From an uncultured Bacteroidales bacterium (GTDB lineage Bacteria > Bacteroidota > Bacteroidia > Bacteroidales > FEN-979): 64,000 nt of DNA. The notes below the pieces were generated by a model that was not told the origin of the DNA, made no database searches, and saw nothing but the letters and a program-made list of their open reading frames with translations. The translations under genes were made by a program, and so were the position numbers. Below are positions 30,921 to 63,571 of this stretch, piece after piece. Numbering within the stretch: the stretch's first letter is position 1; each line of letters starts with the position of its first letter. Location of the stretch: NCBI GenBank assembly GCA_903913885.1, contig CAIWMX010000009.1:1176-65175 (forward strand), in the 5' to 3' direction.

Positions 30921-30997
30921 CCACGTCCCACGTCCCACGTCCCACGTCCCACGTCCCACGTCCCACGTCCTTCGTCCCACGTCCTACGTCCTACGTC
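30921..30997. repeat. Tandem heptamer array (CCACGTC)x11: 7 perfect and 4 degenerate units
   Basis: Read directly: ccacgtc x7, cttcgtc, ccacgtc, ctacgtc x2. The last unit overlaps the DUF1641 stop (30991-30993), and an A8 run (30913-30920) abuts the other end. The minus (sense) strand reads (GGGACGT)n. Confidence 0.97.
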
Positions 30998-31569
30998 CTC
31001 CCCGCAGCCTCCACCAGCCTGAGGGCAAATGACAGCGATTTCCTTACATCCGGAGAATTGAGCTGTTTCACAATACCGAACAGGGATTTATTATCGAGTT
31101 TGTCGTCCATCCTGATTGAGGCAATGGCTTTGGTGGTGCGGTTGAGCGATGTAAGAAGGCCTGGTTGGGTGAGGTTGCGTATGATCCCGGCAATTTCATC
31201 AAAATATCCCTTCTGGTCTAATTCGTTCATTTTATTCACCGCATCGAGGCCAACCTGGTGAAGAACCGGTGAAATATCCTTCATAAAGTCACGTACACTC
31301 TCAAGCATTTCAAGCATTTCATGAAAAGTGCCAACATTCTGCAGGATTTTAATCAGCAGCATCGGGATATCGCTGTTATCAACATCAATCTGTGATTTAT
31401 CGAGCATCACCACGGTGTTTTTGAAAGCATCCCTGGCTACAATGCTCAGGTCTTCAACAAGGTCGTCAAATTCCTCACGATTTCTCTTCTGCTGCTCAAC
31501 ACTTTCAAGGACCAGGTCCATCTTACGGTTGAGTTCGGAAATTTGTTCCTGTATATCTTTTTCTGTCAT
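30991..31569 (-). CDS. DUF1641-domain protein
   Basis: 192 aa, helical. The C-terminal block LLTSLNRTTKAIASI....D...SLFGIVKQLNSPDVRKSLSFALRLVEA is typical of DUF1641 proteins, which accompany FAD-dependent sulfide/NADH oxidoreductases. Confidence 0.7.
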   Translation of the reverse strand: MTEKDIQEQISELNRKMDLVLESVEQQKRNREEFDDLVEDLSIVARDAFKNTVVMLDKSQIDVDNSDIPMLLIKILQNVGTFHEMLEMLESVRDFMKDISPVLHQVGLDAVNKMNELDQKGYFDEIAGIIRNLTQPGLLTSLNRTTKAIASIRMDDKLDNKSLFGIVKQLNSPDVRKSLSFALRLVEAAGRT

Positions 31570-31580
31570 AGCCCCGTGCT

Positions 31581-32810
31581 TTACATTTTTTTACCTGCCA
31601 TGGACATTTTTGAATCGATCGGCATCTCTTTGCCTTTTAACAGGATATGCCAGTAAATCCAGCGAAACAGCAATTTTCCGTAATGGTTCATGCGCGTCTC
31701 CTTCAGCAGGCCAAACGGACCAACACCCGGAAACGGGAACGAACCCGGAAGCGGTTCGGTGGTGTAATTGAAATCGATCAGCGCTCCTTTTCCAAACCCG
31801 GTTTCAATATAGCAATTGGCATGGCCGTCGAACGACTCGGTAAAAGGCCTGTTTTCAATGGCACACATCAGGTTGGCCGTGAGAACATCGGCCTGGAAAT
31901 GAACCACCGAGCCGGCTTTGGAGGTCGGGAAATTCCCTGCATCACCGATGATAAAAATATTGGGATAAAAGTCCGACTGAAGGGTGTGCTTATGAGCCTT
32001 GGCGAAATCCATTTCATCTCCCAGTCCGCTGCGGCCGATCATCATATCTCCCTTGTGAACCGGGACCGTAACCAGACAGTCGAACGGGATTTCCCGGTCA
32101 TCGTAGGAAACGAGAACCTTCCTATCATTATCAACTTTTTCAAGATAGAAATCGGGAACGATTTTTATGTTTTTCTCCTCCAGCAGCGAGCCCAGCACTT
32201 TGGATGCGCGTGGCTTTGTGAAAGCGCCCGACATCGGGGTCACATAGGAGATGTTTACTTTGTTTCGAAATCCGCGCTCAACAAAGAATGCGTCGGCAAA
32301 CATGACGAATTCGAGCGGTGCTACCGGGCATTTTATAGGAACGTCGGCGATGTTTAGCACCAGTTCGCCTCCCTGCCAGGTTTTAAAAAATTCAGCCAAG
32401 GCAACAGCGCCTTCGATGGTGTAAAAATCGAAAATGTTCTTCTGCCACAATGGCCCTTTCAGTCCCGGGGTCTCATCCGGATCCACCCGCGTCCCCGTGG
32501 CAACGATCAGAAAATCATACTTCAGCGAAATCCCGTCTTTCAGAATCACATGGTTGTTCGGGGCATCAACCCGGTCAATTTCCTGGAGAATAAGATTTAC
32601 CCCGGCAGGAAGAAAACTGTTCTTCGGTTTGACCACATCCTGCCTTGTGTACATTCCGAATGGGATAAACAGGAACCCGGGCTGATAGTAATGCGTCCTG
32701 TGCTGATCTACAATGGTGATGTCCCATTCTTCGCGTGACAGGAGTTTCCTCATTTTATTAGCCATGATGGTTCCACCTGTACCGGCTCCAAGAATTAATA
32801 GTCTTTGCAT
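31581..32810 (-). CDS. FAD-dependent pyridine nucleotide-disulfide oxidoreductase, sulfide:quinone oxidoreductase-like
   Basis: Start at ATG 32808-32810 gives MQRLLILGAGTGGTIMANK (FAD GxGxxG). The SQR-like Cys blocks PIKCPVAPLE and HANCYIETGFGKG are present. Confidence 0.75.
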   Translation of the reverse strand: MQRLLILGAGTGGTIMANKMRKLLSREEWDITIVDQHRTHYYQPGFLFIPFGMYTRQDVVKPKNSFLPAGVNLILQEIDRVDAPNNHVILKDGISLKYDFLIVATGTRVDPDETPGLKGPLWQKNIFDFYTIEGAVALAEFFKTWQGGELVLNIADVPIKCPVAPLEFVMFADAFFVERGFRNKVNISYVTPMSGAFTKPRASKVLGSLLEEKNIKIVPDFYLEKVDNDRKVLVSYDDREIPFDCLVTVPVHKGDMMIGRSGLGDEMDFAKAHKHTLQSDFYPNIFIIGDAGNFPTSKAGSVVHFQADVLTANLMCAIENRPFTESFDGHANCYIETGFGKGALIDFNYTTEPLPGSFPFPGVGPFGLLKETRMNHYGKLLFRWIYWHILLKGKEMPIDSKMSMAGKKM

Positions 32811-32957
32811 GATATGGGAGGTTTTTGTGCGTTTTATGTATGCACAAAAATAGATATATATATTCTGCGATTTATATACCTGTGAAAAAAATAACAAAAA
32901 TTATATTCAGTCTGAATATAAAAAAGTTATCAAGAGGAGGAGGGGATCATAAATAAA

Positions 32958-32997
32958 CAGCCAATTGATTCCCCGGGATTTGGGAATCAATTGGCTG
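32958..32997 (-). terminator. Rho-independent terminator downstream of tatA
   Basis: Perfect 16-bp stem CAGCCAATTGATTCCC / GGGAATCAATTGGCTG with an 8-nt loop, 21 nt past the tatA stop. On the minus strand it is followed by TTTATTTAT. Confidence 0.8.
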
Positions 32998-33017
32998 TTA
33001 CAGCAGGGATTGCCTGT

Positions 33018-33242
33018 TTAAACTTTCTTCTCGGCCTGATCGACCGGGGGAGTTTTTTCGGTCGGTTTTTTCAGCTCTTCTTCAAAGCCATCCATACCAT
33101 CTTTGAAGCTTTTAACGCCCTTGCCCAGTCCTTTCATAAGTTCAGGGATTTTCTTGCCGCCGAATAAAAGAAGGACAACCAAAGCAACCAGCAACAGCTC
33201 CGAGTTGCCCAGTCCGAATATCAATAAAATGCCTAAGGTCAT
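33018..33242 (-). CDS. tatA: Twin-arginine translocase subunit TatA/E
   Basis: [49 protein letters not shown] is the TatA TM helix plus amphipathic helix. Start trimmed to ATG 33240-33242. Confidence 0.9.
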
Positions 33243-33357
33243 GATGTGTGTTTTTAAGTCGGAAATCAATGCAAAGATACAAATCTATTGTAATTACAGG
33301 ACTGTTTTAAAAACATTGTGGAGTGTAGGAAAACAACCATATTCCGGCTGGGTCCTG

Positions 33358-34593
33358 TCACAAGCCGGGCTTGAAAAACAGAGATGAATCCCCGTAACTC
33401 AAGAACCGGAAATCATTTGAAAGTGCGTATTCATAAGCGCTTTTCCATGCTTCCCCAACCAGTGCTGCCACCAGCAGGAGCAAGGTGCTTTGCGGCATGT
33501 GGAAATTGGTAATCAGGCCTGCGACCACTTTAAAGCTGTAGCCCGGAACAATCATCAGCTGGGTTTCTCCGGAATATTCCGCCATACCGTTTTCATCAAG
33601 GAACCTTAACAGGGTTTCCAACGCCTGTTCAGTGCTTATTTTGTCAACCTCGTGTATCTCGTATGGATCCCATTGAAAAATCACCGGGTTGTGGTTGTTT
33701 CCGTCTCTGGCCAGTTTTACACCGAGCCAGTATAGGCTTTCCAGCGTTCTTGCCGAGGTTGTACCTACTGCAAACACCGGTCGTTCCCGGTGGTTTAACA
33801 GGCTGGCGATGGTTTTCCTGGAAACCACGATTTTTTCATGGTGCATCACATGACCGCCGATCCGTTCCGCGATGACAGGTTTAAACGTTCCTACACCTAC
33901 ATGCAGGGTTACATTTTCGTAGATAATTCCCCTGGCCGCAATTTTTTGCAAGACAGATTCTGTGAAATGAAGTCCTGCGGTAGGAGCGGCAACGGAGCCC
34001 TGAGGTGCGGCAAAGATGGTTTGGTATCGCTCTGAATCAGCATTTTCGGGAGGCCTGTGGATGTAAGGAGGCAAAGGGATCAACCCGGCCAGTTCAAGGA
34101 TTTCAGAGAAGGTTTTTTCAGCCGGGGACCAGGTGAATTCAATTGCATGGCTGCCATCGCCATAGGGGCCGGCATATTTCGCACCGAGCTGATATGTGTT
34201 TCCCTGGTACCGGATTTCATGAATCAGCAAACCGCTTTTCCACCGTTTCAGGTTCCCGACCAGGCATTTCCAGGTCGATGCCGATTTCTGCAGGAACGCA
34301 GTCTGAATATCCGCCACAGGGGCGATGGGCTCAAGACAGAAGATCTCAACAACCGCACCGGTTGACTTGGTGAAAATGAGCCTTGCCCTGATTACCCTGG
34401 TGTCGTTGAAAACCAGCATGCTGTTGGCAGGCAGCTGGCTGCCGATATTTGAGAAAACATCCTGGCTCAGCAACCCTTGCCGGTATACCAGCAGTTTCGA
34501 TGCATCGCGGTTGGCCAGCGGAAACTGGGCAATCCGGCTGTCCGGCAGGGGGTAATTATAATCAGCTATGCGTATTTCGCCCGGGTCGAACAT
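33358..34593 (-). CDS. queA: S-adenosylmethionine:tRNA ribosyltransferase-isomerase
   Basis: DYNYPLPDSRIAQFPL..RD.SKLLV, GAVVEIF.LEP, PLPPYI.R and TAGLHFT blocks of QueA. The first ATG is at 34591-34593; the ORF track uses an upstream TTG at 34611. Confidence 0.9.
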   Translation of the reverse strand: MFDPGEIRIADYNYPLPDSRIAQFPLANRDASKLLVYRQGLLSQDVFSNIGSQLPANSMLVFNDTRVIRARLIFTKSTGAVVEIFCLEPIAPVADIQTAFLQKSASTWKCLVGNLKRWKSGLLIHEIRYQGNTYQLGAKYAGPYGDGSHAIEFTWSPAEKTFSEILELAGLIPLPPYIHRPPENADSERYQTIFAAPQGSVAAPTAGLHFTESVLQKIAARGIIYENVTLHVGVGTFKPVIAERIGGHVMHHEKIVVSRKTIASLLNHRERPVFAVGTTSARTLESLYWLGVKLARDGNNHNPVIFQWDPYEIHEVDKISTEQALETLLRFLDENGMAEYSGETQLMIVPGYSFKVVAGLITNFHMPQSTLLLLVAALVGEAWKSAYEYALSNDFRFLSYGDSSLFFKPGL

Positions 34594-34636
34594 TACCGTG
34601 TTTTCCTGCAAAGAAAAGGAAAAAAACGGTTGGTCA

Positions 34637-36082
34637 TCAGTGTTTGTCCGAATTGAAGAAAGTCGGTTTGTAGGTCAGCATAATGTAAGCATACTGAGCC
34701 CATTTGCTGGTACCGGTTTTCAGTCCGTTCAATTTTTCCATGGTGGAGGTCGGAAGGAAAAAGCAGTAGGCCGCGTTTATCTCAAGGTTGCTGATGGGCT
34801 TGTAGCCAAACATCAGGTCAATTTCAGAACCCAGGCTCTTTGTCACCGGGGCATAGGGCAAATCTCCCGTTTTTTTGACGGTGGCAGGGATATACCCTTT
34901 GGCGATGCCCAGCATCCGCCAGGTTGCCTCGAGTGATGCTTTTTCGCTGAAAAGCACCGTGGCCCTGCCGTAGAGGTCAGTCAGTCCAGGACTGTTCCCG
35001 CTGGTCACCTGGGCTGAGAACATATCCATGTACCCGTAAAATCCATGGCTGGTTCCATACAAGGTCGAGAAGGCGGTCGATTTTGTTTTCAACCCTGTCG
35101 TGTTCGAATAATCATTGCCGCTCATCCAGTCGTAACCAACCAGCAGGGTGAGAGGTTTTACTACTTTATAGGATGCAAAACCACCGAACAAACCGGCATT
35201 GATGGTCCTTCCGTCGTTGAATTTGCCGGCCTGGTAATATCCGGAAAGGAATATTTTGAGGTTCTTCCAGGTGTATGCGGCAGTTCCGCCTACGGTAAAC
35301 CTGCCGTACAACTGGGTGGGGTAGGTAGTGGTGGCGGAGGCAGTGGAGGTGGTTGAGATGATGGTCTTCCCGATGGTGTCGTGACTTGAGTTGGTGACCC
35401 AAAGTGTGTCTTTACGGGTCGTTTTCGTTGTGGTTACAGAATTTGGTTTCTGGAATACATCCATGACAGCCAGCAGGCTGACCACCAGTTTTTCTTTAAA
35501 AAATTTCTTTTGTTCATACAGATATCCCATGTATTTGTAGCCCTTCAGGGGATAGGTGGCCAGGAAGGCGGATGCCGGCGCTGTGTTGTTGATGGCAAAC
35601 CCGAGGTCGCCGCGGTAGCCCTTTGCCGGGGTTTCCCATTGAAGGATTCCAACATCGTGCGTGGCTCCTTTGGGCGACCAGTTTGAGTTTCCGAACAACC
35701 TCGCATCATCATAGATCAATTCGGTTCGGCCGATTTTAATGGCGAAGTTTTTTGTGAAACTGTAGCGGAACCATCCTTCATACATGTTAACGGTATTTCG
35801 TGTAATGGTATCGGAAGAATAGTTGTTCTCCCCAAAAACATACGCTTGCTGCAACGAGAATTTCGCGGTAAACTGATCGTTCCTGTAGTCGAAGTTCAGC
35901 CGGTTCCGGCCCAGGATGGTAGGATAACCTGTTTGACTCGAATCTCGCAGTTTACTATATCCGTCCCGGTATTCAAGGCGGGGCCGGAATTCGCCTGATA
36001 TCGTGAACTGGGCTTTCAGGTTACCTGCCAGCAGCAGGATACTGCACGACAACAAGAGTAAAATTTTAATCGGGGATTTCAT
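34637..36082 (-). CDS. Outer-membrane beta-barrel porin (alginate-export-family-like)
   Basis: 481 aa. Signal peptide, FTISGEFRPRLEYRDGY N-terminal strand motif, alternating amphipathic strands and a C-terminal aromatic. Confidence 0.6.
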   Translation of the reverse strand: MKSPIKILLLLSCSILLLAGNLKAQFTISGEFRPRLEYRDGYSKLRDSSQTGYPTILGRNRLNFDYRNDQFTAKFSLQQAYVFGENNYSSDTITRNTVNMYEGWFRYSFTKNFAIKIGRTELIYDDARLFGNSNWSPKGATHDVGILQWETPAKGYRGDLGFAINNTAPASAFLATYPLKGYKYMGYLYEQKKFFKEKLVVSLLAVMDVFQKPNSVTTTKTTRKDTLWVTNSSHDTIGKTIISTTSTASATTTYPTQLYGRFTVGGTAAYTWKNLKIFLSGYYQAGKFNDGRTINAGLFGGFASYKVVKPLTLLVGYDWMSGNDYSNTTGLKTKSTAFSTLYGTSHGFYGYMDMFSAQVTSGNSPGLTDLYGRATVLFSEKASLEATWRMLGIAKGYIPATVKKTGDLPYAPVTKSLGSEIDLMFGYKPISNLEINAAYCFFLPTSTMEKLNGLKTGTSKWAQYAYIMLTYKPTFFNSDKH

Positions 36083-36185
36083 AATGGGGAATTTTGTGTT
36101 GTGAATATGTGAACAATGCGAAAATAGAAAATTCCGTCCTAAGGATAATCATTCCGTTGTATCTAATTTTGTAGCAATAAAAAGG

Positions 36186-36193
36186 TAATTTTG
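36186..36193 (+). promoter_or_regulatory. Bacteroidota -7 promoter box (TAnnTTTG)
   Basis: TAATTTTG lies 17 nt upstream of the ATG at 36210. Confidence 0.4.
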
Positions 36194-37732: not shown

Positions 37733-40213
37733 TTAGAAAGAAAAGAATAGCGAAACGAATAATCCGAATTTGGCGACATTCGGGTTGCCGGCGTCATGCA
37801 GGTGGCTCATCCGCCAGATAGCATCAACGCGGATGATTTTAAAGATGTTTTCGATCCCGGCGCCTGCCTCCCAGTATGGCTGACCAGCAAATGACCTGAG
37901 GTTCCCGGGGAAGAGTGAATATTGCCGGTTTTGCTCGGTAAGGGTTCCGTAAACGCACCGCACCTGGCCCACCTCCCGCCATTTCAGCTTTCTGAACAAA
38001 GGGATTTTGTTGAACAGTAATCCGCCGAAATGGTGTGTATAGGAAGCACTTATCCAGGTATCGCTGACAAACTCATAGTAATTCATCAGATTTGACGAGT
38101 GATCGTCGTAGAAAAAACTCTGGTTGCCATCGTGGATGTTTAAAAGCGGGTAGGGAAGCGTGCCCCAAATTTTTCCAGCATGAATAAGATATTTCGACCA
38201 TCCGATGGTTGCAAAATTGAACCATTCGGAGATATTCAGTTCAAGTTTATGATATTCATAATCACTTTTGAAAACTTTCGGAATACCGTAGGAATAGCTC
38301 AGCTGCACGATGGGGTAAACCGAACTGATGGTGACCCTTGTAAACTCTCCGTTCACGAACCGTTCGCGAAAGGCAAGCCTGACATCGAACTGTACTTCCG
38401 AAGTAAACAGGGAGTTCATATACAACGGGTTTGAACGATTACCCGGGAAGACAATAAACTCCGTCGCTCCCAGCGGGAAGAGTTCCCGGTGGATGAAATG
38501 GATGCGGTTGATTAACCCGGTATACCATTCGTGTTCATACTCCAGGCGATAATCGCGCGCCCAGGTGAGTTTGTTGTTCGGGCCGCGGTAAAATACCGAT
38601 GAGAGCAGGTTGTCGCTTGAAAGGGCGGTGGGGCTTGATCCGAGTTGTTCAACATCGTATTTATAGCTTGCAGCAAAGTCGCGCCGCGGATTTTTGCTAA
38701 ACATGTAAATGACATCACCCCCATATTTGAATTTCCGGTCGAGCGTTCCATAGGCCAGGAAGGCCTCAAATCGAATCTTTTTACTGAACGAACTGGCTGT
38801 TCGCATACCATAGCGAAAACGGGCACCCTCAATGGCGTTATAACTGAAAAAATTGAAGTAAGGGCCCAGTTGGAATTTACCCCAGCGCAGATATCCTGCA
38901 AAAACGCCGTAAATAATGTCGGTATAAGTTTTAAAAATGGGTATCGATTTTACCGAATCGATCATAACATAAATACCCTTCTCCTTTTCACTTAACTTCT
39001 CAGGCCGCTTGTTTTCCCAGAACTCAGCAGGTTTGTCTGTGGCGTCGGGATCGATGAATACATCGGCTGGCGACCGGAAAAATCTTTTATTTTCAGGGAT
39101 ATCGAACTGGAACTTACGATAGATCGTCGTGCGCTGTCCATAAAAACCAAGTGTGTTTTTTGAATTATCCAGGATGTTGAAGTCGGTGTTCAGTTTATCG
39201 AGTGTGATCATCCAGAACTGGTTCCCGGTCCATTCGAACTGCTGTTCCACCTCAAGATCGTTGATGAAATTTACGTTGGCATCTTCCGCTATGCGCATTT
39301 TGAAGTGTGTAACCGCGAACGAGGTGTCATTGATCACAAGGTTTCCGGTGAAGGTAAGCTCCTGTTTGCGGCGTGGTTTGAACATAATATGGTAGCACCA
39401 CCTGTTGCCGATGAATGCACTGTCGACGAGGTAAAATTTGTAATATTGGATGGCAAAATCAGCCACCGGGCTGACAAAATTTTTCTCAAAGAGGGGGATG
39501 AAGTTCCTATAGATATCTACCTGCTCCGACAAATTCCCGAGAAATTGCGAAACGCTGGAATTTTTGAAACCCGACATGGACGATGCCGTGATGATCTCTT
39601 TTCTCGAGCGGGGTGATTTCCGGAAATAGATATCCGACATGGTTTCAGTGATAAAAACCGGCAGGTACGACTTGCCGTTCAGCGTCGAAGTATCCATATA
39701 ATTCCAGATGAAGTCGAAATTTTTGAAAACCTTCCGGTTTTTAAACCGTTCGCTGATGTTGTTGGCATCCAGTTCGATTTTGGTATAGGCTTCATACTGG
39801 TATGCATTGAACGATTGCAGGGAATTCTTCTCCTTGTTCTGGAAAACTTTTTTCATCAGCACCTCTGCAGGGTTGCCCTGATAGGTGATTGTTACTTCCG
39901 GGAGGTTGAGATTTTGAGGGACAAGTTCAAAATCGATGGTCTGAAACTGGTTGTGCTGGATTTTCCTGGCGCTCCGGTTGTACCCGATGAGGAAAGCGCA
40001 GATGGAATCGGTTTTTTGTCTGAATTCAAGCGAATAGTTCCCGTTAAAATCGGTCAGAGTGCCAATGGTAGTAGCGGGAATCACTACGTTCACAAACGGA
40101 ATCGCCTCTTTTGAACTGCCGTCGCGTACCGTGCCCATGATCTTCGTAACCTGGGCAAAACCCAATGCAGGAATGAGAAGGATGAAAACCAAAAAAACGA
40201 AAGTTACACGCAT
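37733..40213 (-). CDS. DUF5686 / carboxypeptidase-regulatory-like domain outer-membrane protein
   Basis: Start at ATG 40211-40213 gives MRVTFVFLVFILLIPALGFAQ; the track uses TTG at 40231. CarboxypepD_reg block GTVRDGSSKEAIPFVNVVI..T..GT.TD.NG.Y.L is followed by a ~700-aa beta-rich region ending in a C-terminal Phe. Confidence 0.8.
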   Translation of the reverse strand: MRVTFVFLVFILLIPALGFAQVTKIMGTVRDGSSKEAIPFVNVVIPATTIGTLTDFNGNYSLEFRQKTDSICAFLIGYNRSARKIQHNQFQTIDFELVPQNLNLPEVTITYQGNPAEVLMKKVFQNKEKNSLQSFNAYQYEAYTKIELDANNISERFKNRKVFKNFDFIWNYMDTSTLNGKSYLPVFITETMSDIYFRKSPRSRKEIITASSMSGFKNSSVSQFLGNLSEQVDIYRNFIPLFEKNFVSPVADFAIQYYKFYLVDSAFIGNRWCYHIMFKPRRKQELTFTGNLVINDTSFAVTHFKMRIAEDANVNFINDLEVEQQFEWTGNQFWMITLDKLNTDFNILDNSKNTLGFYGQRTTIYRKFQFDIPENKRFFRSPADVFIDPDATDKPAEFWENKRPEKLSEKEKGIYVMIDSVKSIPIFKTYTDIIYGVFAGYLRWGKFQLGPYFNFFSYNAIEGARFRYGMRTASSFSKKIRFEAFLAYGTLDRKFKYGGDVIYMFSKNPRRDFAASYKYDVEQLGSSPTALSSDNLLSSVFYRGPNNKLTWARDYRLEYEHEWYTGLINRIHFIHRELFPLGATEFIVFPGNRSNPLYMNSLFTSEVQFDVRLAFRERFVNGEFTRVTISSVYPIVQLSYSYGIPKVFKSDYEYHKLELNISEWFNFATIGWSKYLIHAGKIWGTLPYPLLNIHDGNQSFFYDDHSSNLMNYYEFVSDTWISASYTHHFGGLLFNKIPLFRKLKWREVGQVRCVYGTLTEQNRQYSLFPGNLRSFAGQPYWEAGAGIENIFKIIRVDAIWRMSHLHDAGNPNVAKFGLFVSLFFSF

Positions 40214-40249
40214 CAAGAGTTTGTTTGGCAAATGCAGGCGAAAAAAGAA

Positions 40250-40277
40250 TTACGATTTACGATTTACGATTGACGAT
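40250..40277. repeat. Tandem heptamer array (TTACGAT)x4, left arm of an inverted pair
   Basis: ttacgat x3 + tgacgat, read directly. Preceded by an A6 run (40241-46). Lies 36 nt upstream of the DUF5686 gene ATG. Confidence 0.97.
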
Positions 40278-40342
40278 TTTAGTAAGACTAAACGGGTTCC
40301 GGAACGAAAGTTTGCTCACGGGTTTAACATCAACATACGCAG

Positions 40343-40391
40343 TTCGTCAATCATCAATCGTAAATCGTAAATCGTAAATCGTAAATCGTAA
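40343..40391. repeat. Tandem heptamer array (ATCGTAA)x5 plus 2 degenerate units, right arm (reverse complement of the left arm)
   Basis: ttcgtca, atcatca, then atcgtaa x5 perfect (40357-40391). It ends 3 nt from the kpsF stop codon (40395-97). It can pair with 40250-40277 over 28 bp with 1 mismatch. Confidence 0.97.
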
Positions 40392-40394
40392 ATC

Positions 40395-41351
40395 CTAAAG
40401 GATTCCTTCTCTGAGTATATCATGCAGATGAATGACTCCTTTATATAAGTTTTTTTCAACGACCAGCAGTTGTGTGATATTGTTCTGACGCATCAGGTTG
40501 AGTGCATTTACGAGGAGGGTATCGGGAGTGATGGTCCGTGGTTTTTTGGTCATGATGTCGGCTGCGGTGAGTTTGCTGATGTCGGAGTTGTTCTCAAGCA
40601 TCCGGCGAAGGTCGCCATCCGTTATGACGCCAAGCAGTTTATCTTCTTTAATAACGGCGGTGGCACCCAAACGTTTGGAGGAAATTTCGTAGATGACCTT
40701 TTTAATATCATCGTCGAAGCTGACCCTGGGCGCCTGGTTGTTCGAATAAATATCGCTGACCTTAAGATAAAGTTGTTTCCCGATAGCACCCCCGGGATGA
40801 AGCCGGGCGAAATCGCTGGAGGTAAAGCCCCGGGCTTCAAGCAGACAAACAGCCAGTGCGTCGCCCATCACGAGTTGGGCGGTGGTGCTGGAAGTCGGGG
40901 CAAGGTTGTTCGGGCATGCCTCTTTTGAAACCGTGGTGTCGATCACCAGGTCGGCCTGTTTGGCGAGGTACGACTCCTTATTTCCTACGATGGCTATGAG
41001 GGAACTGCCGTATTCTTTCAGCAAGGGGATCAGGATCTTGATCTCGGGAGTTTCACCGCTTTTTGAAAGGCACAGCACGATATCGTCTTTCTGTATGGTG
41101 CCAAGATCCCCGTGAATGGCATCCGCAGCATGCAGGAATGTTGCCGGGGTGCCTGTTGAGTTAAACGTTGCAACTATTTTTTGCCCGATAATGGCACTTT
41201 TCCCGATTCCTGTCACAATTACCCTTCCTTTTGCATGAAGGATAAGGTCAACACAAGTTAAAAAATCGGAATCAACAAAATTTACTAAATTTGCTATGGC
41301 AGTCGCTTCCTCTCTGATTGTGTTGATTGCGATCGTTTTTAAGGATTTCAT
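40395..41351 (-). CDS. kpsF: Arabinose-5-phosphate isomerase (KpsF/GutQ family: SIS + 2 CBS)
   Basis: SIS block GRVIVTGIGKSAIIGQKIVATFNSTGTPA.FLHAADA.HGDLG and tandem C-terminal CBS domains. The first ATG is at 41349-41351; the track uses TTG at 41360. Confidence 0.88.
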   Translation of the reverse strand: MKSLKTIAINTIREEATAIANLVNFVDSDFLTCVDLILHAKGRVIVTGIGKSAIIGQKIVATFNSTGTPATFLHAADAIHGDLGTIQKDDIVLCLSKSGETPEIKILIPLLKEYGSSLIAIVGNKESYLAKQADLVIDTTVSKEACPNNLAPTSSTTAQLVMGDALAVCLLEARGFTSSDFARLHPGGAIGKQLYLKVSDIYSNNQAPRVSFDDDIKKVIYEISSKRLGATAVIKEDKLLGVITDGDLRRMLENNSDISKLTAADIMTKKPRTITPDTLLVNALNLMRQNNITQLLVVEKNLYKGVIHLHDILREGIL

Positions 41352-51977: not shown

Positions 51978-53111
51978 ATGACAAATACCAGCCCGATTCG
52001 GATAGCAGAAATCAGCACAAAAAGGGATCTCAAGCGGTTCATCAATTTTCAGTACAAGCATTATAAAGGCAACCAGTTCTGGTGCCCGCCCATCAGGATG
52101 GACGAAATGAATACCTTGAGCAGGGCTAAAAACCCTGCTTTTGACTTCTGTGACGCGGGGTACTGGCTGGCGTACCGTGGTGATGAAATCGTTGGCAGGA
52201 TAGCCGGGATCATCAATCATAAAGCCAATGAACGCTGGAACGAGAAACTGGTGCGTTTTGGCTGGATCGAGTTTATCGACGACCCTGAAGTATCGCGCCT
52301 GCTGGTCGAAACAGTGGAAGATTGGGGACGTGCAAAGGGAATGAACGGCATTCATGGGCCGCTCGGGTTTTCCGACATGGATTATGAGGGGATGCTGATC
52401 AAGGGATTTGATGAACAGTCAACCCTTACCTCCATCTACAATTTTCCCTATTATGTTCAGCACATGGAACGGCTTGGCTTTGGAAAAGCAGCCGACTGGG
52501 TGCAGTATGAGTTTGAGATACCTCCATCTATCCCCGACAAGGTTGAGCGGATGTCGTTGCTTGTACAGGAGAAGTATAAACTGAAAATCGTCCAGGCAAA
52601 AAAGGCAAAGGATCTGCTGCCATATGCTCCCAAGATGTTCCTTACCCTGAATGCAGCCTTTAGTGATCTTTACGGCTACACGGCACTGTCTCAGAAGCAG
52701 ATGGACATGTATGTCAAATCTTATTTCGGATTTGTGCGGCCAGAATTTGTGACGTTTGTTGTTGATAAGGAGGATGACGTGGTAGGCTTTGGCGTTTCCA
52801 TGCCCTCCCTCACCAAAGCGTTGCGCAAATGCAACGGGAAGCTGTTCCCATTTGGTTTTCTCAATATTCTCCGGGCCATAAAAAAGAACGATGTCATCGA
52901 CATGTACCTGAACGGGGTGCGTCCCGATTATCATGGAAAAGGGGTGAATGCGCTCTATTATAATGAAATGCATCGCGCCTATATCAAATATGGAATTACA
53001 AAGGCCGTTACAAGTCCGCAACTTGAAGACAACGCCAAAGCCCTGACCATTTGGAAGAATTTCAATGGCAGGCAGCATTTGACGCGGAGATGCTGGATCA
53101 AGCATTTTTAA
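51978..53111 (+). CDS. GNAT-fold acyltransferase-like protein, paralog 1
   Basis: 377 aa. The C-terminal half carries a GNAT motif-A-like VRPDYHGKGVNAL. By eye roughly 60% identical to the 54194-55318 product. Confidence 0.6.
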   Translation: MTNTSPIRIAEISTKRDLKRFINFQYKHYKGNQFWCPPIRMDEMNTLSRAKNPAFDFCDAGYWLAYRGDEIVGRIAGIINHKANERWNEKLVRFGWIEFIDDPEVSRLLVETVEDWGRAKGMNGIHGPLGFSDMDYEGMLIKGFDEQSTLTSIYNFPYYVQHMERLGFGKAADWVQYEFEIPPSIPDKVERMSLLVQEKYKLKIVQAKKAKDLLPYAPKMFLTLNAAFSDLYGYTALSQKQMDMYVKSYFGFVRPEFVTFVVDKEDDVVGFGVSMPSLTKALRKCNGKLFPFGFLNILRAIKKNDVIDMYLNGVRPDYHGKGVNALYYNEMHRAYIKYGITKAVTSPQLEDNAKALTIWKNFNGRQHLTRRCWIKHF

Positions 53112-53183
53112 AGGTAGCCAGGTAGCGAGGTAGCGAAATTGCGAAATGGCGAGGTAGCGAAGTAGCGAAAAAGCGAGGTAGCG
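53112..53183. repeat. Tandem octamer array (AGGTAGCG)x9: 5 perfect, 1 single-mismatch and 3 A-rich variants
   Basis: aggtagcc aggtagcg aggtagcg aaattgcg aaatggcg aggtagcg aagtagcg aaaaagcg aggtagcg. It begins 1 nt after the stop at 53111 and ends 4 nt before the ATG at 53188. Confidence 0.97.
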
Positions 53184-53187
53184 AATA

Positions 53188-54192: not shown

Positions 54193-54193
54193 T

Positions 54194-55318: not shown

Positions 55319-55326
55319 AAAAAAAA

Positions 55327-55349
55327 GAAGCCACCTTTTGGGTGGCTTT
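55327..55349. terminator. Bidirectional rho-independent terminator
   Basis: aaaaaa-GAAGCCACC-ttttg-GGTGGCTTT-cttttt lies between the convergent stops at 55318 (+) and 55385 (-). Confidence 0.8.
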
Positions 55350-55384
55350 CTTTTTTAAGCAAAGTTCAAGATTGATTTCCGGAA

Positions 55385-59800: not shown

Positions 59801-60210
59801 TCGGTCTGCACTTTGTTGAGATCGCTCCCGCTTACTTCCTGGGTAGCATAGCCGAGTGACTTCTTCTCCCTGGGAATACCAAGTGCGGTAACAACAACGC
59901 CTTCAAGTTCCCGTACACTGGCAGCTAAAACAACGTTGGCAACATTGTCAGCGCCAAGTTTGAGCTCCTGCGATACCATCCCGACGTAAGAGAACAGCAG
60001 CACATCCTTATCCTTGGGCACACTCAGGGAGTATTTCCCGTCAACATCAGTAATGGTCCCGACAGCGGTGCCTTTGACCATGACGGTGGCACCCGGAATT
60101 CCGGCACCATCATCAGAACTTGTTACCTTGCCCGTAATCGTACGCTGGGCGCTGGCAACTTGCAACCCTATGAAAAGCATAAGGGCAAGGAAAATAGTAA
60201 ATTTTCTCAT
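56851..60210 (-). CDS. SusC/RagA-family TonB-linked outer-membrane transporter
   Basis: 1119 aa. CarboxypepD_reg N-terminus (ITGKVTSSDDGAGIPGATVMVKGT..GT.TD.DGKYSL), plug (NVLKGSAATALYGSRAANGVIMITTKKG), a large barrel and a C-terminal ...NVKLTF. Confidence 0.92.
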   Translation of the reverse strand: MRKFTIFLALMLFIGLQVASAQRTITGKVTSSDDGAGIPGATVMVKGTAVGTITDVDGKYSLSVPKDKDVLLFSYVGMVSQELKLGADNVANVVLAASVRELEGVVVTALGIPREKKSLGYATQEVSGSDLNKVQTDNFVNSLSGRVAGVQVRATTNMGGSTNITLRGTKSLTGDNQAMFVIDGVPVNNSVTNSTNQQQAGQGYDYGNDASDINPDDIETINVLKGSAATALYGSRAANGVIMITTKKGAGSTASGKKSVGVTLNSGVTVGFVDKSTFPEYQQEYGGGYGHYYDGPGSNWYMRYINTDGSITINPVDANSKLTKWVTTSEDASYGARFDGSPTYQWTAVDPQSPGYLKATPWLPAANGPVTFFENPVTFTNSVALDNASSLGSYRLAYTNYKQNGLMPNSQMIKNNVSLNGTWNVNSKLTVTGFGNYSLNNTTGRNSTGYNDNILTSMRQWMETNVDMKDLKNMYNLTGRNATWNYADPSDAQPIFWDNYYWTRYENYETDKRNRFIGNLSANYKITDWLSLFGRFSVDTYTELQEERRAIGSIAATFGIGTTGADGSGGRSDQSSGYLRRDIRYSEYNYDAMANFNKDLSKSFNLKAVLGMNIRRTNYDRLISSTSGGLRISDLYSLANSVGPLPLPKELASKVGVNGIYASASLGYKNFLYLDATLRNDHASTLPSANSSYYYPSVAGSFVFSNVMPDAKWLSFGKVRLNYAKVGNSATFDQLVNNYVINTPFYVLSTTVPTTKKDPDLKPELTTSIEGGLEMYFLGKRLGFDLALYKTNTVNQILPLPVSSATGFYYEVINAGEIQNQGVELALHATPCKNKNFKWDVTVNWAMNRNKVIALKEGINTLQLGSFQGGVTLNAMVGQPYGVLYGTDYVYNSGQKVVKSNGAYQMTTKSDNVIGNMNPDWTGGVLNNLTYKNWSFAFLFDVQKGGDIFSLDMYYGLATGIYKETAYTNDLGNPVRDLIVWADPADHSKGYASTSGGFINPGVQVSATGVVTPNTTRLAASNYGAFGYVRLPNKAFVYDASYIKLRQVSLSYALPSSLLKKCFITGVTFTAVASNVWILFKNLPYADPESGLGAGNLQGYTTGSLPTTRDFSFNVKLTF

Positions 60211-60496
60211 ACAGTTTGATTTTAGTTAGTAAATGTATTAATTATCAGTGATCTATTTAAATTCATTCGGGAGTATGGCGTGATATGAGCCAACTGAATG
60301 GTATATATATGGAGGTTTTTCTTCAAAGAGGTTTATTTCAACTGCAAGTTTAAGAAATAGTTTTTATGTAACAAACAAGATTTTAACAAAAATTTAATAA
60401 TAATTTAACAATGTTTGTTAATTCACACCGGCCGGGGTCGTCAGGGGGAAAACATAACAAGGCAATCTCGGGCTAAGGTATTGTCAGTCAAACTGG

Positions 60497-60922
60497 TTAG
60501 TTCAGTTTTCTGAAAAAAAGGCCAAAAAGGAGCAGCAGGAAGATATTTACCATGGTTGTACCGGTGCTGATTTGCGGCTGAAGTGCCTGCCAGGCAGAAA
60601 TTATAAGACAGGAAGGCGCCAGCAGCCAGAAACCGGTCCTTTTACCAGACCAAATGAAAAGGGCACCTCCGAATGCCAGCAGGTTGAAGAGGAATCCTGA
60701 AGAGAAAAGGACAAGCAAATGGTTGTGGGAATAGGCATTTTCAGGAACATAGAGGTTTCGCACGCGCGTGATGGTCCCCGAGTAGAAGATACATGTGAAA
60801 AAGAGCATTGAAAGCAACGCAAAATAAACAAAGGCGAACAGGCACAACACAGTTAGCAAAACAGGTCGTGTCCTGGCCTTCACATCCCCGGCAACATCAA
60901 TATTCACGGCCTCCTTGTTCAT
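60497..60922 (-). CDS. Hypothetical 4-TM membrane protein
   Basis: 141 aa with four hydrophobic segments. Starts 1 nt after the upstream gene. Confidence 0.55.
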   Translation of the reverse strand: MNKEAVNIDVAGDVKARTRPVLLTVLCLFAFVYFALLSMLFFTCIFYSGTITRVRNLYVPENAYSHNHLLVLFSSGFLFNLLAFGGALFIWSGKRTGFWLLAPSCLIISAWQALQPQISTGTTMVNIFLLLLFGLFFRKLN

Positions 60923-60923
60923 G

Positions 60924-61364
60924 TCAGGTCATAAATTTGAGGTTCATGCTGTACAGATAGATGAAAAGCCCTGAAAACACAAGGTCGAAAAGCCCCGGTG
61001 CGGGCAGGTGCATGAAATACATGGTTGCAAGGATGAGCAGGATCTGAAAGATTGTATAGATGTGAAACCCTGCTTTCTTTTGGCGCATCATAAGGATAGC
61101 CCCCGCAATTGAACCGGCAAACAACACGGCCGACACAATAAAAAAAACCGGGCCGGGTGCAAGCAACTGATCGATACCGGGCAATTTGAACTTTTCGCTG
61201 ATTTCCGGGGCAATCTGAAGGAAAACATCATAAAACCCGGCAATGACCAGGTTGGAAAACAGATACAGCCCGCTCCAGATGAAGGTGAGAATACAGAGTA
61301 TGGTGAGCATGTTGGGGCGTTTGGGCTGTGCTTCGGGCAGCTGCTCCTGTGTTGTGTCTTCCAT
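60924..61364 (-). CDS. Hypothetical 4-TM membrane protein
   Basis: 146 aa. Topology resembles the neighbouring gene product (possibly a distant paralog). Starts 3 nt after the upstream gene. Confidence 0.55.
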   Translation of the reverse strand: MEDTTQEQLPEAQPKRPNMLTILCILTFIWSGLYLFSNLVIAGFYDVFLQIAPEISEKFKLPGIDQLLAPGPVFFIVSAVLFAGSIAGAILMMRQKKAGFHIYTIFQILLILATMYFMHLPAPGLFDLVFSGLFIYLYSMNLKFMT

Positions 61365-61367
61365 TAT

Positions 61368-61763
61368 TTATGCGCCAAAATTAGATTTGTCTCCAACATA
61401 AACTGCTTTGCCGAATCCCAGGATAGGGATAAATATCCATCGCAGGAAAAATAAACCGACAGTAAAACCTGAGCTTTTGCCGAAGCTTTTTGATAACCCG
61501 TCCAGGGTGATAATAAGAATCACCAGATTCACAACGGGGATCATCATCAACAGGATATACCACCAGGGTTTTCCGGCAATTTTAATACCAATAAGTAAAT
61601 TGTAAACAGGAATAATTGCTGCCCAGCCGGGTTCACCGGCCTTTTCGAACATATACCAGGCTCCTGCGATCTCGACCACGGCAGTTGTGAGTGCAAAGAT
61701 GAGGATGGGGATGATCAGGGCCAGGATAAACGGCCAGAACGGGATAGAATCGGTGATTTCCAT
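61368..61763 (-). CDS. DUF5684-like small membrane protein
   Basis: 131 aa. WYMFEKAGEPGWAAIIPVYNLLIGIKIAGKPWWYILLMMIPVVNLV resembles the DUF5684 signature. Confidence 0.6.
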   Translation of the reverse strand: MEITDSIPFWPFILALIIPILIFALTTAVVEIAGAWYMFEKAGEPGWAAIIPVYNLLIGIKIAGKPWWYILLMMIPVVNLVILIITLDGLSKSFGKSSGFTVGLFFLRWIFIPILGFGKAVYVGDKSNFGA

Positions 61764-61826
61764 ACGACGGTTTTTTTATGGGTTAATGATTGGGTGTGCT
61801 TAGCAGGGGTGTTCGTAACAACAAGT

Positions 61827-61958
61827 GAAAATGTTCACGCAGATTTGAGCGGATTTTTATTCGCAGATTCACGCAGAATTATACCAACAGGAGGCTTATT
61901 CCGCAAAAATCTGCGATTATATCTGCGTAAATCTGCGCAAATCCGCGTGAACATTTTC
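61827..61958. repeat. Long imperfect inverted repeat built from ~10-11 nt periodic CGCAGAT/GCGGAT-type units
   Basis: The outer 14 bp are perfect (GAAAATGTTCACGC / GCGTGAACATTTTC). Pairing continues to ~30 bp with 2 mismatches and 1 G-U. The arms contain cgcagattt, gcggattt, cgcagatt, cgcagaatt / aatctgcg, atctgcg, aatctgcg, aatccgcg. It starts 4 nt from the hutH stop. Confidence 0.9.
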
Positions 61959-61962
61959 CATT

Positions 61963-63486
61963 CTATTCAAGTGTTCCTAAAGTATTCTCAACTTCCGTGA
62001 GTATTTCGCATGATTTCACGAGCGCTTTCATGGCGTTGTGATCAGGATAGAGCGGTCTGTCCACTTCGAGGAAGTCAACATATTTCCTGATGACCTCCCT
62101 GGCTTTTGAGACGCCTGCCCCGAATTTATATTCCCTGAAATCCAGGGCCTGGGCGGCAGCCATCAGTTCAATTCCAAGAATGCCGTAAGCGTTGTCGAGA
62201 ATCTGGAAGTTTTTCAGGGCCGTGTTCATGCCCATGGAAACGAAGTCTTCCTGGTCGGCTGCGGCCGGAATCGACTGGATTGATGCAGGCGCTGAGAGAA
62301 TTCGTTGTTCAACGATCTGCATATCGGCAGTGTACTGGCTTAACATGAGACCGCTGAACATGCCGGCTCCCTTGGTCAGGAAAGCAGGCAGCCCAACGCT
62401 CAGGGCGGGGTTGTTCAACCGGTTCATCCGGCGTTCGCTCATAACGCTGACCATGGTGATCACATAACCAGCCATATCCATTGGTACAGAAACGGGCGAA
62501 CCCTGGAAATTGGCTCCCGAGAGCTGAAGATTTTCTTCGGGGAAGAATATCGGGTTATCGCCCACGCCGTTCAGTTCAATCTCCACCTGCGACCTTGCAT
62601 AGGCCAGCGCATCATGAGCGGCGCCGATGACCTGGGGTGTGGAACGCATGGAATAAGCATCCTGGACCTTGCATTTCACCTTTCCTTCCACGAGATCACC
62701 CCCGGTAACACATTTAAGAATGGCTGCAGCGCTACGCACAGCTCCTTTAAATCCACGGATTTCATGGAGTTTCGGACTGTAGGGGCGCATGTTTGCCTTC
62801 ATGGCTTCGAGCGACATGGAAGCTGCGATTTCAGCCTGTTTCAGCCAGTTATTGGCATCAAAAAGGTAAAGGGCGCTCATGGCCGTAAGCACATTGGATC
62901 CATTAATGGTGGCAAGTCCGTCGCGTGCCTGCAGTCCCGGAACAGGTATGCCGGCAGCGTCGAGCGCATCTTTACCCGGCATCAGGGTTCCCTGGTAATA
63001 AGCCTGTCCTTCGCCCATCATCAACAAGGCAATCTGCGACATGGGGGCAAGGTCGCCGCATGCACCCACCGATCCCTTCTGACAAACCATGGGCGTTACA
63101 CCCTTGTTCAGCATGTCGACAAGCGTTTGGGTGATCTCAAGACGGGAACCGGAATTGCCATGGGCATGCACGTTAATACGTCCGAGCATGGCGCCGCGTA
63201 CCCAGTCGATGGGCATTGGGTCGCCAATACCGGCGGCATGGTTGTATATCAGGTATTTCTGGAATTCCTTGACCTGGTCGTCGTTTAGCACCATTTCAGA
63301 AAATTCGCCGATACCGGTATTTACACCATACATGATTTCGTGGGCCTGAATTTTCCGCTCAAGCATCGCCCTGCATATATGTATACGTTCAACTGCTTTG
63401 GGATCAAGTTCTACTTTTTCATTGTGGCGGGCAACCCTGACCACGTCTTCAATTGTAAGGCCAGCGCCTTTTATAATTAATGTCAT
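61963..63486 (-). CDS. hutH: Histidine ammonia-lyase (MIO enzyme) with Ala-Cys-Gly in place of Ala-Ser-Gly
   Basis: 507 aa. YGVNTGIGEFSE, NHAAGIG, GSVGACGDLAPMS, NGSNVLTA, QDAYS.R and NQEDFVSMG are co-linear with bacterial HutH. The triad codons GCA-TGC-GGC are read directly at 63055-63063 (minus strand). Confidence 0.85.
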   Translation of the reverse strand: MTLIIKGAGLTIEDVVRVARHNEKVELDPKAVERIHICRAMLERKIQAHEIMYGVNTGIGEFSEMVLNDDQVKEFQKYLIYNHAAGIGDPMPIDWVRGAMLGRINVHAHGNSGSRLEITQTLVDMLNKGVTPMVCQKGSVGACGDLAPMSQIALLMMGEGQAYYQGTLMPGKDALDAAGIPVPGLQARDGLATINGSNVLTAMSALYLFDANNWLKQAEIAASMSLEAMKANMRPYSPKLHEIRGFKGAVRSAAAILKCVTGGDLVEGKVKCKVQDAYSMRSTPQVIGAAHDALAYARSQVEIELNGVGDNPIFFPEENLQLSGANFQGSPVSVPMDMAGYVITMVSVMSERRMNRLNNPALSVGLPAFLTKGAGMFSGLMLSQYTADMQIVEQRILSAPASIQSIPAAADQEDFVSMGMNTALKNFQILDNAYGILGIELMAAAQALDFREYKFGAGVSKAREVIRKYVDFLEVDRPLYPDHNAMKALVKSCEILTEVENTLGTLE

Positions 63487-63496
63487 AGCTCAATAG

Positions 63497-63524
63497 AAAT
63501 TAAAAATTAAAAACTAAAAATTAC
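63497..63524. repeat. Tandem heptamer array (AAATTAA)x4
   Basis: aaattaa aaattaa aaactaa aaattac, starting 11 nt upstream of the hutH start codon. The sense strand reads a T-rich (TTAATTT)n. Confidence 0.9.
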
Positions 63525-63540
63525 CGGAGATCACTGTTTT

Positions 63541-63571
63541 CCTGCATTCCTGCATTCATGCATTCTGCATT
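63541..63571. repeat. Tandem octamer array (CCTGCATT)x4
   Basis: cctgcatt cctgcatt catgcatt ctgcatt, in the hisS-hutH spacer. Confidence 0.9.

Follow-up and report, generated by a model that had tools for sequence, protein, structure and literature searches.

How can five gene junctions in one stretch of bacterial DNA come to consist largely of short tandem repeats, with a different motif at each junction? The question arises from a 64-kb window (the whole stretch analysed here, 64,000 nucleotides, whose positions are used throughout) of the genome of an uncultured freshwater Bacteroidales bacterium, in which a preliminary description had picked out five spacers made of short tandem units, here called J1 to J5. 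Array detection with Tandem Repeats Finder (TRF) and an inverted-repeat search recovered all five, and the map of open reading frames (ORFs) placed each of them between same-strand neighbours, four on the minus strand and one, J3, on the plus strand. We observed directly the existence of these arrays, their excess over chance, their unit spectrum and placement, the turnover of their motifs between species, their variation in whole-unit steps and the hairpin folds of some of them. We consider it probable that they are long simple-sequence repeats (SSRs), a property of the genome of a whole clade and not five purpose-built elements. With similar confidence, we favor the explanation that they were made by slippage and filtered by selection to harmless sites past stop codons, together with a subclass of hairpins that would stem from template switching and was probably co-opted at some junctions.

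J1 (30921-30998, minus strand) lies between a DUF1641 gene and a DsrC/TusE gene and consists of 11.1 copies of CCACGTC with 92% matches, read on the sense strand as (GACGTGG)x11, i.e., GGG tracts with ACGT spacing. Its first units take in the end of the DUF1641 gene, with the final two codons and then the TAG stop at 30991-30993, a T8 run (30913-30920) follows directly 3' of the array on the sense strand, and 113 nt of non-repeat spacer then lead to the dsrC/tusE start at 30799. J2 (minus strand) separates a KpsF-like gene with SIS and CBS domains from a DUF5686 gene and has two arms. Its 5' arm, (GATTTAC)x8 on the sense strand (40344-40399; TCGTAAA x8 in TRF, the inverse of the 40250-40279 array), overlaps the stop codon (40395-40397) of the KpsF-like gene, and its 3' arm, sense (AAATCGT)x4.3, spans 40247-40279 (TTACGAT x4.3 at 40250-40279 in TRF); the two pair as inverted repeats in several 7-nt registers around a loop at 40280-40343 and are followed by U6 (40241-40246) and by 27 nt to the DUF5686 ATG at 40213. 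At J3, the sole plus-strand junction, a degenerate array of AGGTAGCG x9.1 (53112-53185) occupies the entire 76-nt spacer from the TAA stop (53109-53111) of a GNAT-like gene to 2 nt before the ATG (53188) of a NAD-epimerase gene. J4 (61827-61958, minus strand), between hutH and a DUF5684 gene, begins 4 nt past the hutH stop (61963-61965) and is an inverted pair of degenerate CGCAGAT-type units with a period of about 10 nt; TRF reported a 10-nt unit x4 at 61907-61948, the partner arm was detected as an inverted repeat, and the arms (61898-61958 and 61827-61880) make one long imperfect hairpin. J5, between hisS and hutH on the minus strand, contains a first array, sense (AATGCAGG)x4 (63539-63571; TTCCTGCA x4.2 in TRF), and a second, sense (TTTTTAA)x4 (63497-63523; AAATTAA x3.9 in TRF), which stops 10 nt ahead of the hutH ATG (63486). 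Measured from the hisS stop, the first array is 77 nt away, but a conserved 20-codon ORF intervenes, whose stop is 6 nt upstream of the array.

The flanking genes were named from the ORF map, Pfam and the genes called on sister contigs. With the small ORF counted for J5, all five loci start within 6 nt of a stop codon or overlap one, and the preliminary description had correctly reported both that four of them start 0-4 nt from, or overlap, the upstream stop (overlap at J1 and J2, 0 nt at J3, 4 nt at J4) and that T-runs follow two of them on the sense strand (T8 at J1, T6 at J2). Window arrays have units of 7-10 nt in 4-11 copies with 78-92% matches, and each motif is confined to one locus, with at least six unrelated motifs in 64 kb. 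A sixth, weak array, (CGAATAT)x3.7 (5892-5917, plus strand), likewise sits in a co-directional spacer, 5 nt past the stop of a pdxJ-like gene (5056-5886) and 12 nt before the next same-strand gene (5930).

Relatives were fetched via HutH and QueA from genome and metagenome collections, yielding 2.3 Mb in about 160 Bacteroidales contigs, all from uncultured freshwater Bacteroidales metagenome-assembled genomes (MAGs) or contigs; L-numbers label these genomes, contigs or strains. Arrays were counted at a period of 5-30 and at least three copies. Genes were mapped as the greedily chosen longest ORFs of at least 100 codons, with no gene finder, and since small ORFs are missed and spurious ORFs are sometimes called across arrays in this way, the count of arrays within ORFs is inflated and the distances to stops and starts are noisy. 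We found 224 arrays in 2.3 Mb, 176 (79%) of them outside ORFs, though ORFs cover 89% of the DNA. Outside ORFs, 57 of 130 arrays had 7-nt units and 33 of 130 had 8-nt units, and the 136 arrays with 7-8-nt units fell into about 100 motif classes. Array density per 100 kb was 14 in the window, 22 in the closest relatives, 4-7 in distant relatives and 0 in an Escherichia coli control; the arrays are a lineage trait of this clade's genome, with a density that drops with distance from the window genome. Several unrelated units can follow one another in one spacer: the 217-nt hutH-DUF5684 spacer of L022 (11522-11740) is made of four successive arrays with the units CGTGACG, GAGTGAAT, CTAATCG and TTTTGAA.

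These arrays are far more frequent than base composition would produce. The 23 window spacers of at least 60 nt contain 9 arrays, and 20 dinucleotide shuffles of them gave none in 19 runs and one in the remaining run, so that the recurring architecture proposed for the window is not due to chance. The 454 spacers from relatives held 110 arrays, as opposed to 0-2 in shuffles, and a 50-kb E. coli K-12 control contained no array at the same thresholds. Because the same arrays recur base for base in independent assemblies of other lake samples, they are not an assembly artefact. A search against Rfam at gathering thresholds returned no family in the window, and no tRNAs were found there.

Two further TRF hits in the window were set apart from the arrays discussed here. 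An 11-nt, T-rich array (60374-60411) in the spacer 60211-60496, upstream of a SusC/SusD-like pair, has a sequence conserved among relatives (L012, L022, L032 and L033) and looks like phased T-tracts of a promoter region rather than a slippage array. The other (18537-18578) is a coding KEK repeat: an in-frame 9-nt repeat gives the tail KEKKEKKEKKEKK to an 80-residue ORF (18349-18591, plus strand), and the spacer around this ORF matches L123 weakly.

Where the arrays are placed was counted on spacers of at least 60 nt. Arrays occurred in 89 of 527 co-directional spacers (17%), 11 of 100 convergent spacers (11%) and 12 of 199 divergent spacers (6%). Spacers containing a gene 3' end were favored over divergent ones (odds ratio (OR) 3.0, P = 0.0002), in which arrays were about three-fold rarer, not absent, and co-directional and convergent spacers did not differ significantly (P = 0.18); the picture was unchanged when hutH-adjacent junctions were left out. 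Across 69 co-directional spacers, the array block lay no more than 6 nt from the upstream stop in 27, against 13.7 expected at random (P < 0.0002), and no pull towards the downstream start was seen (11 against 13.7 expected). The placement rule read from the window thus survives as a bias towards non-coding DNA and gene 3' ends and as a hugging of stop codons, but not as a rule specific to co-directional spacers: an enrichment of co-directional over convergent junctions did not hold up in the relatives, where the convergent 11% is not significantly below 17%. Similarly, the impression from the window that arrays are never found inside coding sequences or at divergent promoters holds beyond it as a tendency (79% outside ORFs, 6% of divergent spacers) and fails as an absolute. 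In strain L181, the (CACATCAG)n array before der sits in a divergent spacer, and 7-nt arrays lie inside the hisS coding sequence of five relatives, outside the window (L014 8562-8590, L020 8659-8692, L023 8599-8629, L024 8628-8658 and L025 8172-8193). All five fall in one variable surface loop of HisRS, between KILNSGNYL and TRHI.EKGLRYD, whose length and sequence differ per genome.

Four of the junctions were compared in relatives, which carry arrays at the same places with different motifs, close relatives sharing motif families. At the hisS-hutH junction (J5), about 25 of 30 close relatives have arrays past the small ORF's stop, and the motifs vary between genomes, among them GGCAATGCA, AAGCTGGT (with an inverted partner), CAATTAC, GATTTAC, GTTGGCGA, CCAGTTAT, AATAGCGA and CACTAAA. 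The AATGCAG family of the first J5 array is kept there in L011, L012, L014 and L021 and replaced by other motifs in about 20 other genomes; a T-rich run like the second J5 array is kept at the same place in L010, L012 and L021. The DUF1641-dsrC (J1), hutH-DUF5684 (J4) and J3 junctions follow the same pattern of turnover. Orthologous spacers that lack arrays are short, -20 to +57 nt overall: 10-18 nt at J5, 34-57 nt at J4 and, at J2, from an overlap by 14-20 nt up to +46 nt. The J3 spacer, 76 nt here, has orthologues of 1, 5 and 21 nt in L020, L023 and L031, respectively, and both J2 and J3 are thus tight or overlapping operon junctions in relatives. From these tiny spacers it follows that the arrays are expansions of originally tight junctions, some of them operon-internal, and since the KpsF-like and DUF5686 genes overlap or abut in relatives (-20 to +46 nt), the whole J2 element is a lineage-specific insertion.

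The 20-codon ORF that precedes the J5 arrays (63578-63640, minus strand; VKRTWSTAILSARSMIIGAE, then stop) was found after hisS in 18 genomes with column entropies of 12.2, 9.4 and 26.1 at codon positions 1, 2 and 3; this concentration of variation at third positions indicates a real small gene, for which a search of NCBIfam gave no match. The ORF is present across L010-L043 between hisS and hutH, with the sister group's version reading MVKRTFRISILGARSWVIGSE before its stop; in several genomes its in-frame start is GTA or absent, and an out-of-frame ATG-TAA pair overlaps it. More distant relatives (L040, L048, L062, L073, L077, L080 and others) carry a different conserved small ORF upstream of hutH, of the type M..NW.LKFKIKINRTSL followed by a stop, which may be a leader peptide of the histidine-utilisation gene.

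Copy-number variation was found at J1, the only long, near-perfect array in the window. In sequenced contigs, the array comprises 11, 10 or 9 units, and these alleles also show changes in unit order; a further contig has a spacer of 163 nt, shorter by a length that corresponds to four units, and many contigs end inside the array. J2-J5 are degenerate and identical in every other sample that could be read (the J3 spacer measures 76 nt in every other sample, and J4 is identical in 4 other samples). In the same species, about 1 kb left of the window, two arrays almost fill the era-der spacer (L179 7838-8258, L180 7851-8258 and L181 8090-8258; 0.95-1.4 kb to the left of window position 1). Of the two, (AATGCARAC)x10.7-15.7 comes first, beginning on the era stop codon, and (CACATCAG)x21-34 comes after it; copy numbers differ in each of three strains, with higher-order periods of 18 and 27 nt, which are typical of multi-unit duplication and are the behavior expected of replication slippage. 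Gene callers place ORFs of 132 and 146 residues over these arrays. In L181, a rearrangement breakpoint lies at the array edge, and the upstream neighbour is a divergent ABC-transporter gene. The strains also differ further left of era/der: at 2468-6637, L180 differs from L179 and L181, one strain having an insertion with an AbiEii-family gene and a 707-residue ORF that looks like a small variable, defence-type island.

Variation of this kind, and the way in which J1 and era-der vary in whole units among samples and strains and break assemblies, is what would be expected if the arrays were contingency loci whose copy-number changes tune the spacing, and hence the coupling or expression, of flanking genes as a form of bet-hedging. 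We nevertheless regard this as very unlikely. The invariance of J2-J5 in all other samples leaves only J1 within the window (11, 10 and 9 units) in support of the suggested copy-number-variable spacers, and the flanking genes are housekeeping genes (hisS, hutH, kpsF-like, tusE/dsrC-like, era and der), not genes for surface or host-interaction functions. Arrays were not found in the 5' ends of reading frames, and none was located between promoter hexamers, though promoters were not mapped. Rehm et al. reached the same negative conclusion for the heptamers of Xanthomonas and Nostoc (PMC4692102). Phase-variable contingency loci were therefore rejected: the arrays follow the stops of housekeeping genes, and hypermutability is the single feature shared with such loci, at J1 only.

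Replication slippage followed by selection would account for most of these patterns. Strand slippage during replication would duplicate or delete whole units, and loops of 7-8 nt exceed the efficient range of methyl-directed mismatch repair, as cited in PMC4060949; because such loops would be poorly repaired, arrays could start as short duplications made by chance, lengthen, decay through point mutation and be overwritten by new unit variants. Selection would then purge arrays where a change in length is harmful, namely in reading frames and in the 20-120 nt before the next start, which hold promoter and leader, so that the survivors would accumulate directly past stops in originally very short junctions, and also in at least one insertion-tolerant protein loop, that of HisRS. 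About a fifth of the arrays appear to have acquired a copy of themselves in inverted orientation, for which template switching across a fold-back is the simplest route, and this would give hairpins such as those of J2 and J4. Where they adjoin stop codons, these hairpins probably act secondarily as transcript 3' ends, as stabilisers or as translation-insulating structures, and the unpaired arrays J1, J3 and J5 are most likely without a dedicated function. That slippage and template switching were at work, that selection filtered the arrays and that any of them has a role at the RNA level is what we infer.

Folding of the sense strand separated the loci. Both J2 (minimum free energy (MFE) -57.3 kcal/mol, z = -6.8) and J4 (MFE -66.7, z = -6.0, and -6.85 in a second run) fold into long hairpins of inverted arrays, whereas the folds of J1, J3 and J5 were no better than those of shuffles (z = +0.94, +0.87 and -0.2). 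Across the relatives, 25 of 113 arrays (22%) have an inverted partner within 400 nt, compared with 1 of 113 in a reversed-unit control. There are thus two classes of arrays, a hairpin class and a larger unpaired class, of which the former may well serve as a transcript-end or insulating structure. At the hutH-DUF5684 junction (J4), a hairpin is retained in five genomes by four different motifs (z = -5.7 to -7.7), and several array-free orthologues have small GC hairpins in its place.

These hairpins raise the alternative that the arrays are selected RNA-level elements, i.e., terminators, attenuators, stabilising 3' hairpins or translation-insulating ribosome-termination structures, with repeats merely as the mode of building. 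The very stable hairpins of J2 and J4 0-4 nt past a stop, the U6 after J2, the retention of a hairpin at hutH-DUF5684 across changes of motif, the proportion of arrays with an inverted partner and the preference of arrays for spacers with a gene 3' end, where they adjoin stop codons, all fit this alternative; J2 and J4 are predicted to have the stable structure just past the stop that characterizes ribosome-termination structures, and such structures are reported to control re-initiation in E. coli (PMC7518266). We still think it unlikely as an account of the arrays as a whole. At three of the five window loci, folding was no better than in shuffles, and 71 array-bearing and 91 array-free co-directional spacers had similar fold z-scores (median -0.94 vs. 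-0.70, P = 0.17). Of 125 arrays, 9 (7%) were followed by a T-run on the sense strand and 6 by one on the antisense strand, which makes T-runs neither a general feature nor one with a strand preference, and a consensus terminator scan called no array. J2 and J3, moreover, interrupt pairs of genes that in relatives overlap or directly adjoin, positions at which a terminator would do harm, and an array of the same class lies in a divergent spacer upstream of der. The suggestion that the arrays are terminators assembled from repeats accordingly fails as a general reading, and we rejected intrinsic (Rho-independent) terminators in general: only J2 has both a hairpin and a U-run (U6), J1 has U8 without a hairpin, J4 a hairpin without a U-run, and J3 and J5 neither. 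A canonical bidirectional terminator, whose GC-rich stem of 10 bp closes on a 3-nt loop and which has T-runs on each strand, lies at 55327-55349 in the convergent spacer 55319-55384, which indicates that the genome also uses ordinary terminators. A possible G-quadruplex motif, with at least four G3+ tracts and short loops on one strand, is present only at J1, in its perfect (GGGACGT)x7-8; with G-quadruplexes allowed in ViennaRNA, J1 gains about 2 kcal/mol. The other four loci have no such motif, and the orthologous J1 arrays of relatives are without G3 tracts. For the idea of Rho utilisation by C-rich arrays, no overall C-over-G bias was found on the sense strand.

J2 also has the outline of a mobile element: it is a discrete insertion of 160-180 nt whose ends are inverted, and the genes on either side of it overlap in relatives. 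L013, L018 and L068 have similar elements with GATTTAC/GTAAATC arms at other loci. That the arrays are remnants or cargo of small mobile elements inserting after genes, resembling MITEs (miniature transposable elements with inverted repeats) or repetitive extragenic palindromes (REPs), nonetheless seems extremely unlikely. An all-versus-all BLAST of 112 array-bearing spacers with the arrays masked gave 48 hit pairs, almost all of them between hisS-hutH or SusC-upstream orthologues, and none linked the five junctions of the window to one another; non-orthologous spacers thus share essentially no sequence once the arrays are removed. Elements that share an arm motif have different loops, neither target-site duplications nor transposase genes were seen, and each window motif stays at its one locus. 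A REP/BIME or MITE family, with shared flanks or cores beyond orthologues, was rejected on these grounds, in agreement with the preliminary description, which had argued against a single mobile family.

Several observations weigh against passive slippage and selection as the full account. First, the slippage process itself is argued by analogy with other systems. Second, some array persists at one junction across about 25 species, which could reflect selection for an array as such and not just inheritance. Third, although each locus of the window has its own motif, as had been claimed, motifs are not unrelated across the clade: the same motif class is found at different loci in 12 of 128 within-genome pairs but only 68 of 9009 between-genome pairs, i.e., sharing is 13 times as frequent within genomes (OR 13.6, P = 1 × 10−9, a result resting on five genomes and short contigs). 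Examples are AAAATTC four times in L022, AAGTAGCG three times in L025, and AACTGGAT twice in L024 and twice in L028. In the window species, AATGCAG-type units are present at both hisS-hutH and era-der. Fourth, the commonest class, AAATCGT, recurs in sense orientation 10-30 nt upstream of the start codons of non-orthologous genes. Finally, 17 of 22 spacers with two arrays have the purine-rich one in front (P = 0.017), a strand asymmetry that needs a cause tied to the transcript or to transcription; single arrays showed no strand bias in purine content or GC skew on the sense strand (49 vs. 49). The sharing of motifs and the recurrence of AAATCGT hint at spread between loci or at motif-specific selection, and because the passive model explains neither of these nor the order bias, a motif-specific or transcript-level explanation stays alive.

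One such explanation holds that the arrays serve as platforms for a sequence-reading protein, each subunit or domain of which would bind one 7-8-nt unit (an RNA binder of the cold-shock or S1 type, for instance, or a DNA binder), with the arrays making up a genome-specific post-transcriptional or architectural network and preferred motifs spreading between loci. Within-genome motif sharing, the AATGCAG-type units at two loci of the window species, the (AAATCGT)n arrays before starts and the order of purine-rich and pyrimidine-rich arrays would all follow from it, and the same idea has been proposed for the TAACTGA repeats of Beggiatoaceae (PMC4679880). We hold it to be quite unlikely. The number of motif classes among arrays of 7-8 nt is large, no motif is common to the loci of the window, motifs are completely replaced between species at one junction, no candidate binder was identified, and the sharing comes from the five genomes and short contigs mentioned above. 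A bolder version, in which the arrays are not passive debris but the product or target of an active motif-specific system, with a factor by which preferred 7-8-nt arrays are seeded at, or copied to, the 3' flanks of many genes in a genome and a unit-reading protein that binds them, appears to us just as doubtful; such seeding within a genome would explain why motifs are shared there. If true, this system would amount to a fast-evolving form of intercistronic control, with purine-rich arrays after the stop, pyrimidine- or A-rich arrays before the next start and hairpin pairs as insulators.

In this clade, dozens of closely related genomes with a different array at the same junction form a natural series for following the birth, growth, decay and replacement of arrays, and the clade is also suited to asking why some lineages make arrays and whether hairpins were recruited for transcript-end or insulation roles. 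In practical terms, the arrays break metagenome assemblies and create spurious ORF calls, which matters for the annotation of MAGs from this group.

For decades, bacteria have been known to carry tandem heptamer arrays between their genes, with no function or mechanism of spread established. We take the heptanucleotides of the cyanobacterium Calothrix PCC 7601 to be the short tandemly repeated repetitive (STRR) sequences. An earlier report described three such tandemly repeated heptanucleotides in that strain (cited in the 2015 papers, e.g., PMC4692102). Mrazek et al. (2007) described long SSRs with 5-11-nt units, dominated by heptamers, and gave polymerase slippage as their origin (as cited in PMC4679880 and PMC4692102). 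As far as these citing accounts go, the STRR sequences and the SSRs of Mrazek et al. resemble the arrays here in being intergenic tandem heptamers with several motif families per genome, restricted to lineages and with the heptamer as the commonest unit; polymerase slippage is proposed for them, and the accounts give no established function. Their hosts differ, being, according to the same accounts, heterocystous cyanobacteria, Burkholderia, Xanthomonas and actinobacteria, and long-unit repeats have been linked to large genomes of high G+C content (as summarised in PMC4692102), whereas the clade studied here has about 48% G+C and complete relatives of 3.5-5.3 Mb.

The class has been described before, outside this phylum: heptamer arrays with the same placement bias have been reported for Xanthomonas and Nostoc (PMC4692102). 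Heptamer arrays have also been mentioned in passing for some Bacteroidetes (PMC4679880). Rehm et al. (2015) described heptameric G-rich SSRs in Xanthomonas (GGGAATC) and Nostoc (GGGGA(C/T)T) and left their function unassigned (PMC4692102). Like the arrays here, these consist of 7-nt units placed head to tail, theirs in 2 to over 20 copies; they are enriched in non-coding DNA, preferred between aligned ORFs and under-represented between divergent ORFs; inverted versions exist, and the same junctions in related species show variation in length and sequence; and they are not tied to surface genes or mobile elements (PMC4692102). J1, a (GGGACGT)n array on the coding strand across a stop, directly fits this description. 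In Xanthomonas and Nostoc, each genome has a single dominant G-rich motif, and arrays preferably have four units, the smallest number that can make a G-quadruplex (PMC4692102). The arrays here fall into about 100 motif classes, most of which are not G-rich; units of both 7 and 8 nt occur, four copies are not favored, and the host is a Bacteroidales bacterium with about 48% G+C.

MacGregor (2015) reported direct repeats of TAACTGA in marine Beggiatoaceae, some cyanobacteria and five Bacteroidetes, and, in Gramella forsetii, Aequorivita sublithincola and Elizabethkingia anophelis, spacers that bring together several kinds of heptamer repeat; in close relatives the spacers are shorter and free of repeats, and the repeats are places where contigs end (PMC4679880). 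All three observations (mixed heptamers, short repeat-free spacers in relatives and contig ends) are reproduced here, and (AAATCGT)n just upstream of starts resembles the position of TAACTGA in Beggiatoaceae. Unlike that motif, however, the arrays here are biased to stop codons and not to starts, and TAACTGA itself is essentially absent, with one exact dimer only in 2.3 Mb. Compared with intrinsic terminators and the ribosome-termination structures of Chemla et al. (2020; PMC7518266), J2 and J4 are alike in being strong hairpins 0-4 nt past a stop, but their stems of 30-50 bp are built of repeat units and enclose loops of 20-80 nt, whereas canonical terminators in the window have short GC-rich stems and loops of 3-8 nt, and most arrays do not fold at all. 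Taken together, the arrays have the features of the general long-SSR or heptamer class, with tandem 5-11-nt units, a non-coding and divergent-depleted distribution, adjacency to stops and whole-unit variation; what they lack is the one dominant motif per genome seen in Xanthomonas, Nostoc and Beggiatoaceae but not among the STRR sequences, which defines single-motif sub-cases and not the class. New in comparison with these systems are the host clade, the large range of motifs, on units of both 7 and 8 nt, their documented replacement at fixed junctions, the hairpins built of repeats and the arrays in the HisRS loop.

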